8,526 nucleotides of DNA from a virus, in UHGV virus genome UHGV-1374314. The stretch is one strand, 5' to 3'. Shown here in pieces: positions 6,497 to 8,140 of the stretch. Made by a program: the position numbers and the translations under genes. How positions within the stretch are numbered: position 1 is the first letter of the stretch; each line of letters opens with the position of its first letter. The notes under the pieces were generated by a model. That model saw nothing but the letters and a program-made list of their open reading frames with translations. It was not told the DNA's origin and made no database searches.

Positions 6497-7762
6497 ATGC
6501 GCTCTGTTATTGTTGCTTTTTTATTTGCCTGTTCATTCTGCGTTTCTGCTGAAACTGTTAATTTAAATAATTCATCTATTCGCTCATTTGTTCAGTGGTA
6601 TTCTTCAAAAACTGGCAAGCCTGTTATTGTTAATCCTGATATTAAAGGAAACGTAACCGTATTTAATGCTGATGTTAATCCAACAAATATTGATGATTTC
6701 TTTAAGTCTGTTCTGAATGCTAACGGTTTTGTCATGCTTTCTGGCAATCCTGCGGTAGTCTCTTTGCCGTCTAAATTACCTTCACAGATGGTTTCGGATT
6801 CCGATGATTCTGATAACCAGTCTTATGATACTTTTCCTTCTGAGCCATCTTACCAGCCAGTACCTGTGGCGCTTACGGTCAGAAATTTTAAGCTGACAAA
6901 AGTTAGATCGTCCGATGTTCAGCAACTGATTAAAATTTATCTTGATTCTAATGGTGGTGGTAATGTCGTGGATTATCCAGGCAATAACTCGCTGATTGTT
7001 TCTGCGCCTGACGAGCTGCTGCCGGTTCTGTCCGATTTTATCAATTCTGTGGATGTTGCCCGCGATCAGGTTCTCATTCAGTCGCTGATGTTTGAAACCA
7101 GCTTGTCTGATGGCGTTGATTTATCGTTTGCGGCAGGTTCTGCATCCGGTCATAAGGTTGCGGGGGGCTTTAATACTTCTGCACTGGGTAGCGCTCTTTC
7201 TACGGCGGGCGGTTCTTTTGGTATTTTTGATGGTAACGTGTTGGCGCTGTCTCTGCGTGCTGTCCAGAGTAATTCACGCTCTAAGGTGATTTCAACGCCG
7301 CGTATTCTTACTCAGTCTGGTCAGACTGGTTACATTTCCGTAGGTAAGAATGTGCCGTTTATCACCGGAAAGGTAACGGGCGAATCTGCCGGGGTAAATA
7401 ATCCGTTTCAGACTATCGAGCGTCATGATGTTGGCGTTTCTCTCAAGGTAACGCCTGTTGTCATGGGTAACGGGCAACTAGTTCTGACTATCGACACTCG
7501 CGCTGATTCAATCAGCAATGATGATCAGGCATCCGATATTATTACTAATCAGCGCCAGATTCAGACGACAGTCCAGATTAAGGATGGTCAGACGTTGTTA
7601 TTGGGGGGGCTTATCGATTCATCGTTCAGCAATGCCGAGCGTTCAGTTCCAGTTATAAGTAAAATTCCTCTTATAGGCTGGATTTTCAGTAGCAAGGCAG
7701 ACAGCAATGAACAGCGTATTATGTATATTTTGCTTACAGCACATATCATTCGTCCACTTTGA
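6497..7762 (+). CDS. gIV: Secretin gpIV (outer-membrane export channel for virion extrusion)
   Basis: Start at ATG 6497 (MRSVIVAFLFACSFCVSA, signal peptide); the track ORF 6404.. is an upstream extension overlapping gI. Strong similarity to Ff pIV throughout, e.g. GGSFGIF, NVPFITG(K/R)VTGESA, NNPFQTIER, DGQTLLLGGL, SKIPLIG. Confidence 0.95.
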   Translation: MRSVIVAFLFACSFCVSAETVNLNNSSIRSFVQWYSSKTGKPVIVNPDIKGNVTVFNADVNPTNIDDFFKSVLNANGFVMLSGNPAVVSLPSKLPSQMVSDSDDSDNQSYDTFPSEPSYQPVPVALTVRNFKLTKVRSSDVQQLIKIYLDSNGGGNVVDYPGNNSLIVSAPDELLPVLSDFINSVDVARDQVLIQSLMFETSLSDGVDLSFAAGSASGHKVAGGFNTSALGSALSTAGGSFGIFDGNVLALSLRAVQSNSRSKVISTPRILTQSGQTGYISVGKNVPFITGKVTGESAGVNNPFQTIERHDVGVSLKVTPVVMGNGQLVLTIDTRADSISNDDQASDIITNQRQIQTTVQIKDGQTLLLGGLIDSSFSNAERSVPVISKIPLIGWIFSSKADSNEQRIMYILLTAHIIRPL

Positions 7763-7803
7763 TGGATAGCGGGTAGGTGCGTGAGCCCTGCTCGCTATCC
7801 ATC
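7761..7803. other. Perfect 11-bp inverted repeat (hairpin) overlapping the gIV stop codon
   Basis: GATGGATAGCG (7761-7771) / CGCTATCCATC (7793-7803) with a 21-nt G-rich loop. No T-tract follows on the + strand. Confidence 0.5.
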
Positions 7804-7831
7804 AAATGGACATTATTGATTGGGGTAACTA

Positions 7832-8140
7832 ATGGATTCTTATGGGATTTTATCTGCTCTGGCAGAACGAACGATTACAGCGGAAGAAGCAAAAACAATG
7901 ACACTTGCAGCCAGAAGTTCTTCGGCTCAGGTAAATGAAGCATCACTTGCTCTGTTACTGATTGATAATACTCTGGATGCGATCAAAGCAGCTGCCAGTG
8001 AAGGGAAAGGATACACTTTACTTCCTTCTTATGAGATTTCTGTAAAAGCCATTGATTTAGCAGAAGAATTTTTAAGGAAACAATGCGGCTATGTTATTGA
8101 TAACCAGAATGGCGTAAGGACGGTCTATTGGTTTATATGA
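7832..8140 (+). CDS. Hypothetical protein, 102 aa, predicted largely helical
   Basis: Intact ORF with a plausible G-rich RBS upstream and balanced composition. No recognisable family. Phage or host origin uncertain. Confidence 0.5.
   Translation: MDSYGILSALAERTITAEEAKTMTLAARSSSAQVNEASLALLLIDNTLDAIKAAASEGKGYTLLPSYEISVKAIDLAEEFLRKQCGYVIDNQNGVRTVYWFI

Follow-up and report, generated by a model that had tools for sequence, protein, structure and literature searches.

What is the function of the inverted repeat that spans the stop codon of the secretin gene, gene IV (gIV), in the viral genome UHGV-1374314? The whole stretch that we analyzed, referred to here as the window, is 8,526 nt long and represents one unit of a CUS-1/YpfPhi-type inovirus prophage at the dif site of Escherichia coli. 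The original prediction for this locus noted a perfect 11-bp inverted repeat at the gIV stop without a T-tract and proposed that it may be a packaging-signal or origin-type hairpin, or else the right-hand recombination junction of the prophage. We find that the repeat belongs to a 60-nt hairpin at positions 7752-7811, the element under study, and conclude with a probability of roughly 85% that the main function of this hairpin is that of a packaging (morphogenetic) signal, homologous to the signal of phages IKe and I2-2.

The 11-bp repeat is present as predicted (GATGGATAGCG, 7761-7771, and CGCTATCCATC, 7793-7803), but its size had been understated, as it forms only the core of the hairpin. 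Fourteen perfect pairs join 7758-7771 to 7793-7806, and a repeat finder returned arms of 20 nt (7758-7777 and 7787-7806) with 90% complementarity and a 9-nt spacer. A main stem of 20 pairs is reached by counting two G.T wobbles on the + strand, G7772.T7792 and T7774.G7790. In the folded structure, a basal stem of 5 bp (GTCCA, 7752-7756, with TGGAC, 7807-7811) lies below a bulged C7757, and a GTGA loop is closed by two apical G-C pairs (7779-7780 with 7785-7786), giving a total of 27 pairs and a 4-nt loop over 60 nt. The gIV stop codon TGA (7760-7762) sits inside the ascending limb, and the final gIV codons make up the base of the hairpin.

We folded the 60-mer as single-stranded DNA (ssDNA) on both strands, a check that the original prediction had proposed. 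Both strands form a stable hairpin, with the + strand (-23.7 kcal/mol, z = -8.9) ahead of the - strand (-20.1 kcal/mol, z = -7.3) by 3.6 kcal/mol. None of 200 shuffled sequences folded as well as the + strand, and the hairpin is far beyond chance expectation. An Rfam scan of the whole window at E values up to 1 returned nothing at the hairpin, for which no curated family exists.

Comparison with the packaging signals of related inoviruses, likewise suggested at the outset, supports the proposal of a packaging signal. The gIV product (pIV) of the window shares 72% amino acid identity with that of I2-2, 68% with that of the Erwinia phage PEar1, 67% with that of IKe, and ~49% with those of the Ff phages and If1. 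The I2-2 record (NC_001332) annotates a "morphogenetic signal" at 2260-2330, where the gIV stop ends at 2273. In the IKe record (NC_002014), a stem loop at 6141-6196 is labeled "pot. transcription termination, morphogenetic signal," and gIV ends at 6151. A hairpin across the gIV stop is therefore an arrangement common to the window, I2-2, and IKe, and the annotated signals match the prophage hairpin in position, strand, structure, and apex sequence. When read directly, the apex is GGGTAGGTGCGTGAGCCCTGCTC in the window, GGGTAGGTGCGTTAGCCCTGCCC in I2-2, GGGTAGGTGCGCTAGCCCTGCCC in IKe, and GGGTAGGTGCGCCAGCCCTGCCC in PEar1. Outside two loop bases, the apex GGTAGGTGCG-NN-AGCCCTGC does not differ between the prophage, IKe, I2-2, PEar1, and a number of uncultivated inoviruses.

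The likeness to IKe and I2-2 (genus Lineavirus) extends to the T.G wobble within the apex, a comparable stem length, and an identical C-terminus of the tail virion protein pVII. Several features nevertheless set the prophage element apart. The lower stem of I2-2 reads GAGGGTGCGG/CCGTATCCTC where the prophage has GATGGATAGC/GCTATCCATC, with the changes compensated, and the prophage stem is the more regular one, its 27 pairs being interrupted by single-base bulges, one low and one near the apex. Downstream of the hairpin, the prophage carries cargo open reading frames (ORFs) and a Xer attachment site, whereas IKe and I2-2 carry their replication origins; the prophage is integrative (CTX-type), whereas IKe and I2-2 are non-integrating. 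This relationship would escape plain DNA similarity alone. A megablast search of the whole window against phage records picked up nothing beyond short stretches of gIV and a single intergenic match, to If1, and a blastn search of the 76-nt hairpin segment against phages gave a marginal I2-2 match (E = 0.6, under the "morphogenetic signal") together with a chance match to a Mycobacterium phage.

To sample relatives independently of the hairpin sequence, we fetched loci via pIV alone and folded 150 nt around each gIV stop. Every relative with a pIV identity of at least 69% has a hairpin at the gIV stop, with the core GGTGCG-N2-3-AGCCC and a single variant, GGGGCG. At 48-50% identity (Ff, If1, and Photorhabdus/Xenorhabdus types), a large hairpin lies just past the stop and its apex mostly differs (CTGCGCAGCGGGG; GCGCAGCG in f1); within this group, folding around the gIV stop of the Xenorhabdus locus L006 gave no comparable hairpin. 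At 41-43% identity (Halomonas, Vreelandella, and Chromohalobacter types), folding gave no comparable hairpin after gIV, indicating that the rule of a hairpin at the stop does not reach that far. A separate pattern scan of viral contigs with GGTAGGTGCGNNAGCCCTGC matched 16 contigs, comprising 15 inoviruses in the gIV-stop context and one chance match.

Over the 290 nt that precede the hairpin, the relatives share 64-85% nucleotide identity with the window; downstream, identity falls to background in all but the closest relative. The similarity stops at the 3' foot of the hairpin, and different ORFs follow in different phages (from 7812-7831 onward in the window), which suggests that the hairpin marks a breakpoint for the exchange of cargo modules. 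The hairpin is thus the last conserved element of the assembly module, separating a conserved core from variable cargo beyond it.

We next asked whether the structure itself is maintained. A plain MAFFT alignment of all 15 variants analyzed with RNAalifold left 5 sequences out of structural register and gave a weak consensus, and it was replaced by an alignment to a covariance model. This model, R1, was built on 8 sequences that were already in structural register in the plain MAFFT alignment; its training set included the window and I2-2 but not IKe. R1 scores I2-2 at 78.5 bits, the window at 72.2 bits, and IKe at 57.0 bits on the + strand, and it finds one + strand site in the window, with the - strand scoring 28.6 bits. 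Scores on the + strand are 57-78 bits for relatives with the near-invariant apex and 20-40 bits for divergent relatives (loci L004/L109, L108/L113/L115, and L118), against 20-34 bits on the - strand. With filters off, the model also recovers L118, L108, L111, and L115 on the + strand, in each case at the gIV stop, and weakly detects the f1 packaging signal on the correct strand (17.7 bits, E = 0.014). A high-GC contig (L101) was rejected as a chance match: it carries the apex pattern only, its score of 23.7 bits covers model positions 21-41, and its context is unrelated.

Among 11 distinct high-scoring sequences, 88.9% of the cells hold a standard pair, compared with 33-49% when the partners are slid by 1-3 columns, and in 15 of the 26 stem pairs both partners have changed with pairing preserved. 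None of 500 shuffles matched the observed pairing, the covariation score, or the number of covarying pairs. Locus L112, for example, reads GATGGCTGGC/GCCAGCCATC in place of the GATGGATAGC/GCTATCCATC of the window, a difference of two clean double substitutions. These results indicate that selection keeps the structure and not the sequence alone. The T.G pair of the apex (model pair 24-40, U.G) is invariant in 11 of 11 sequences. Across all pairs, G.T cells number 27 and A.C cells 2; such a bias would not be shown by an element of duplex DNA or of the - strand, and it argues that the hairpin folds on the + (viral) strand. All structural genes have the sense of the + strand, which, if Ff and CTXphi are a guide, would also be the strand that is packaged.

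The hairpin also shares features with the better studied signals of the Ff phages (f1/M13/fd). According to a preprint (bioRxiv 10.1101/2023.12.30.573655), long stem-loops between gIV and the origin make up the signals of f1 (5511-5564; stem of 24 bp) and IKe (6141-6197; stem of 22 bp), and their orientation is critical. Hairpin A of f1 (5511-5564) resembles the prophage element in being the first structured element after gIV and a long, imperfect hairpin on the + strand. Russel & Model (1989), as quoted by that preprint, described CGGGT with GGTG close behind it on the ascending limb of the Ff signal. In the window, a CGGGT..GGTG motif, CGGGTAGGTG, lies in the ascending limb at 7770-7779 and is the sole match on both strands of the 8.5 kb, where 0.07 would be expected by chance; the equivalent f1 motif, CGGGTGTGGTG, is visible in the f1 sequence carried by locus L009. 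The two signals differ in that their similarity at the level of the model is marginal, in that pIV is only ~49% identical, and in the f1 apex, GCGCAGCG, which is common instead to If1 and Photorhabdus-type phages.

In the Ff phages, the signal is reported to be read by pVII and pIX. The window encodes both presumed partners. Its pVII is 70% identical to the pVII of IKe and I2-2, and its last 13 residues (SFGLGAITAGVFR) are identical to those of IKe; the pIX candidate is 53-57% identical to the pIX of IKe and I2-2. If1 has a different apex in its post-gIV hairpin together with a clearly more divergent pVII, and the class of signal and the class of recognition protein appear to go together in this small sample of sequences. 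The pVII and pIX ORFs of the window overlap (3343-3524); RefSeq homologues annotate pVII only, and pIX is apparently unannotated in them. The features of an Ff/IKe-type signal are found together here: a position at the gIV stop, a long hairpin on the + strand, the CGGGT..GGTG motif, homology to an annotated member, a maintained structure, and a phage that encodes pVII, pIX, and pI.

The packaging signals of Xanthomonas integrative phages (phiLf group) are also cis-acting DNA hairpins of integrative inoviruses. As described in the same preprint (bioRxiv 10.1101/2023.12.30.573655), however, they are only 20-26 nt long with stems of 7-8 bp, lie mostly inside the replication gene, act independently of orientation, and have GGX(A/-)CCG(C/T)G as their consensus. 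The prophage element is of the Ff/IKe type and not of the Xanthomonas type. Another large ssDNA hairpin of a dif-integrating inovirus is the forked attP(+) hairpin of CTXphi; the equivalent in this phage is at window 1-100, whereas the hairpin under study has no XerC/XerD arms and lies ~720 bp from the junction.

From the homology to Ff and IKe, we infer that the hairpin would be needed in cis for encapsidation and would be read by pVII/pIX. A cryo-EM (electron cryo-microscopy) paper on f1 reports that the pV-ssDNA complex leaves the signal hairpin exposed. In the mechanism that we propose, the 60-nt inverted repeat in the + (viral) ssDNA made by rolling-circle replication would snap back into a duplex hairpin that is not coated by pV. 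At one end of the rod of pV-coated ssDNA, the hairpin would remain exposed and could be offered to the pI assembly complex in the inner membrane. The basic C-termini of pVII and pIX might then bind the G-rich apex of the hairpin (CGGGTAGGTG..., with the fixed T.G mismatch), and this recognition would start coat assembly and set the orientation of the DNA in the virion.

Some points weigh against the hairpin being a packaging signal. Covariation was scored on an alignment that had been fitted to the model structure and leans toward it, although 8 of its 11 rows were in register in the plain MAFFT alignment. The + strand bias fits a role in mRNA equally well, as the transcript has the same sense. 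Finally, the IKe record labels its own hairpin as a potential transcription terminator in addition to a morphogenetic signal.

A role in RNA could coexist with packaging. The hairpin might act both as an ssDNA packaging signal and, in the transcript that reads through from gI-gIV, as a T-tract-less RNA barrier, dependent on Rho or on processing, that meters the expression of orf102/orf77 (YPO2280a/YPO2281 homologues), ties cargo expression to phage production, and provides a fixed boundary for cargo swaps. We regard this dual role as unlikely, if conceivable. It is improbable that the hairpin serves as a terminator, attenuator, or 3'-end stabilizer at the end of the gI-gIV transcript, where it would halt or pause RNA polymerase or shield the 3' end and limit read-through into orf102/orf77. 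The RNA fold is very stable, and f1 reportedly has a Rho-dependent terminator in its post-gIV region. An intrinsic terminator, however, consists of a G+C-rich hairpin and a T-run; as originally noted, the tail of the hairpin (ATTATTGATTGGGG) has no T-run, and a terminator scan gave no site there. Most relatives also lack a U-tract after the hairpin, with no consistent T-run among them and with unrelated tails (ATTATTGATT, CCCTGAACAG, CCCCTGACCC, CTCTCCGTGT). The start of orf102 lies 20 nt past the hairpin, which leaves no room for a promoter of its own, and no promoter-like site was found nearby, so that transcription probably must pass through the hairpin. Moreover, the 20-nt invariant apex exceeds what a terminator needs, its conservation points to a specific protein partner, and the hairpin is kept whether an intergenic region (IKe and I2-2) or ORFs follow.

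An origin-type hairpin, the second role first proposed for the repeat, found no support. As a minus-strand (complementary-strand) origin, the hairpin would be a promoter mimic that recruits RNA polymerase or primase on the incoming ssDNA to prime synthesis of the second strand. The hairpin is large and + strand-specific as ssDNA, and the minus origins of Ff and IKe lie in the same intergenic region downstream of gIV. The IKe minus-origin hairpins (6333-6385 and 6410-6438), however, are separate from the homologue of our hairpin (6141-6196), and the IKe record lists its viral-strand origin hairpins apart from that homologue as well, farther downstream. Neither kind has a counterpart here, and the IKe origin features at 6333-6438 and 6554-6599 gave no match at the hairpin. 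At the nucleotide level, the window matches the If1 and I2-2 intergenic regions only on origin-like segments elsewhere, at 1043-1090 and 1560-1592. We consider a minus-strand origin at the hairpin very improbable.

The origin-like segments have features of their own. Positions 1043-1090 (48 nt) are 95.8% identical to the "major intergenic region" of If1 (If1 5058-5105), sit between two - strand ORFs, and form small hairpins; this segment may be an exchanged origin module, perhaps a minus-strand origin. A second, weaker If1 intergenic match, at 1629-1756 (70% over 129 nt), overlaps a 60-amino acid - strand ORF. A palindrome of 13 bp, near-perfect and with a loop of 3 nt, lies at 1561-1589 (AACGTGCAGTGTT GGT AATACTGCACGTT; ssDNA fold z = -4.3). 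The region of this palindrome is 91% identical over 34 nt to intergenic positions 2666-2699 of I2-2, upstream of the replication gene in both phages, and is a candidate plus-strand origin or nick-site hairpin.

Less credible still is a palindromic operator in double-stranded DNA for a dimeric regulator of orf102/orf77. The inverted-repeat symmetry and the location immediately upstream of orf102 would suit such a site, but the arms vary freely in sequence while covariation preserves the stems, the opposite of what an operator shows; the asymmetry between G.T and A.C would be meaningless for double-stranded DNA, and the element is kept in IKe and I2-2, both of which lack orf102. The remaining proposal, that the hairpin is the right-hand junction of the prophage or a Xer recombination site, is refuted to the point of deserving practically no credence: although the apex holds GGTGCG, the six bases with which the XerC arm of dif begins, no dif-like site with up to 3 mismatches was found at the hairpin, the host dif lies outside the window, starting 4 nt past its end, the paired dif-like sites of the phage are at 1-100, the tandem-copy and attR junctions in NCTC9104 put the ends at window 1 and ~8526 and hence the hairpin ~720 bp inside the right end, and the same apex occurs in the non-integrating IKe and I2-2.

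PHROG and Pfam scans revealed a complete inovirus gene set on the + strand of the window (Table 1). The RefSeq homologues of gIV start at an ATG equivalent to window position 6497.

Table 1. Coordinates in the window of the hairpin, its parts, and the surrounding phage features
Feature	Position	Strand	Basis
Complete hairpin, candidate packaging (morphogenetic) signal	7752-7811	+	Fold; covariance model R1
Ascending (5') arm of main stem, holds gIV stop	7758-7777	+	
Bulged T7778 between main stem and apical G-C pairs	7778	+	
Descending (3') arm of main stem	7787-7806	+	
CGGGTAGGTG, CGGGT then GGTG motif, ascending limb	7770-7779	+	Pattern match
Conserved apex GGTAGGTGCG-NN-AGCCCTGC, includes invariant T7774.G7790 wobble	7772-7791	+	
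5' side of apex, GGTAGGTG	7772-7779	+	
CTX-type attL/attP, a forked hairpin formed by an inverted pair of dif-like sites	1-100	+	Fold -33.1 kcal/mol, z = -9.9
gII-type replication protein	1917-3011	+	
105-amino acid ORF in gene V position, function unknown	3023-3340	+	phrog_1547
Gene VII, 28 amino acids, MDDVIQILIASGIVISFGLGAITAGVFR; presumed recognition partner	3343-3429	+	RefSeq homologue "tail virion protein G7P-2"
Gene IX candidate, 31 amino acids; presumed recognition partner	3429-3524	+	57% identity to IKe pIX
Major coat protein	3544-3786	+	
Attachment protein	ends 5053	+	
gVI	5050-5394	+	
pI (gI/Zot)	5395-6489	+	
Gene IV secretin ORF	6404-7762	+	phrog_1012, 2e-153; Secretin Pfam
orf102, first attR-proximal cargo ORF, YPO2280a position, function unknown	7832-8140	+	phrog_4115

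The forked hairpin at the left end pairs ATTGGTGCGCATAATG (1-16), the first letters of the window, with CATTATGCGAACCAAT (85-100), and CGTTATGTTGAAAAGGCCGCTGCG (24-47) with its complement (60-83). In UM146, the host dif site, GGTGCGCATAATGTATATTATGTTAAAT, occupies the window-equivalent positions 8530-8557, and the tandem-copy junction and final attR of NCTC9104 show that the window corresponds to exactly one phage unit. The window has the organization published for CUS-1 (E. coli O18:K1:H7) and YpfPhi (Yersinia pestis), which are 8.7-kb phages with two ORFs of unknown function beside attR and have been classed with CTXphi for XerC-mediated integration of ssDNA (PMC4266046; PMC4246890). The assignment of window 1-100 as a CTX-type attP/attL is consistent with this published classing.

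In 49 complete E. coli chromosomes, the right-hand 1.1 kb of the window recurs at 99% identity or more; there, the prophage lies between hipBA and the ydeP/fimbrial region, often in tandem copies. The 76-nt hairpin segment occurs in 49 of 5426 complete E. coli genomes, and every match listed has the 3' end of a gIV (secretin) homologue. The hairpin is phage-specific; it does not recur at this locus in phage-free host genomes, an outcome that had been named at the outset as refuting the original prediction. The prophage is found at a median of 2 places per genome, usually in tandem copies, and at a maximum of 16 (one genome), with NZ_CP092647.1 (EC5502) and L150 as examples, and tandem copies fit the need of CTX-type phages for adjacent prophages in rolling-circle production.

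The cargo next to attL varies between otherwise near-identical prophages (window 100-984; L001 4842-5596; L150 3612-4541), in agreement with a published note that CUS-1 and YpfPhi differ at their attL-proximal end. In the window, the attL-proximal ORFs on the - strand, at 100-471 and 517-984, gave no Pfam match. UM146 carries a zinc-binding gene of the ECs_2282 family and a hypothetical gene at this end, and NCTC9104 carries a gene of the STM4504/CBY_0614 family.

In the searchable literature on the CUS-1/YpfPhi group, we found no description of a packaging signal, and a preprint describes the packaging signals of integrative filamentous phages as largely unknown (bioRxiv 10.1101/2023.12.30.573655). 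The hairpin would give this group, whose members are dif-integrated prophages of extraintestinal E. coli and Yersinia pestis, a specific cis element with a putative packaging function. A CTX-type integrative phage here pairs a classical Ff/IKe-type signal with IKe-like pVII and pIX. The assignment leaves current understanding unchanged and brings a new phage group under a mechanism already known; specialists on inoviruses would expect such an element. Together with an origin (candidates at 1043-1090 and 1561-1589), the 60-nt element should suffice for building phagemids or for predicting the mobilization of satellites by a helper phage, and mutational studies of signal recognition could start from the near-invariant 20-nt apex, a compact and testable motif in which the T.G mismatch is fixed.

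Finally, our searches recovered enterobacterial inovirus DNA that is misplaced in public genomes (loci L003, L009, L012, and L021), probably through mis-binning or contamination. A metagenome-assembled contig of Candidatus Nanosynbacter encodes a gIV product 100% identical to that of the window, and a SAR11 single-cell contig holds the f1 origin and packaging-signal sequence, which is probably derived from a vector. An Actinomadura contig contains an If1-like phage, and a Paenibacillus contig contains a gIV fragment with 96% identity.

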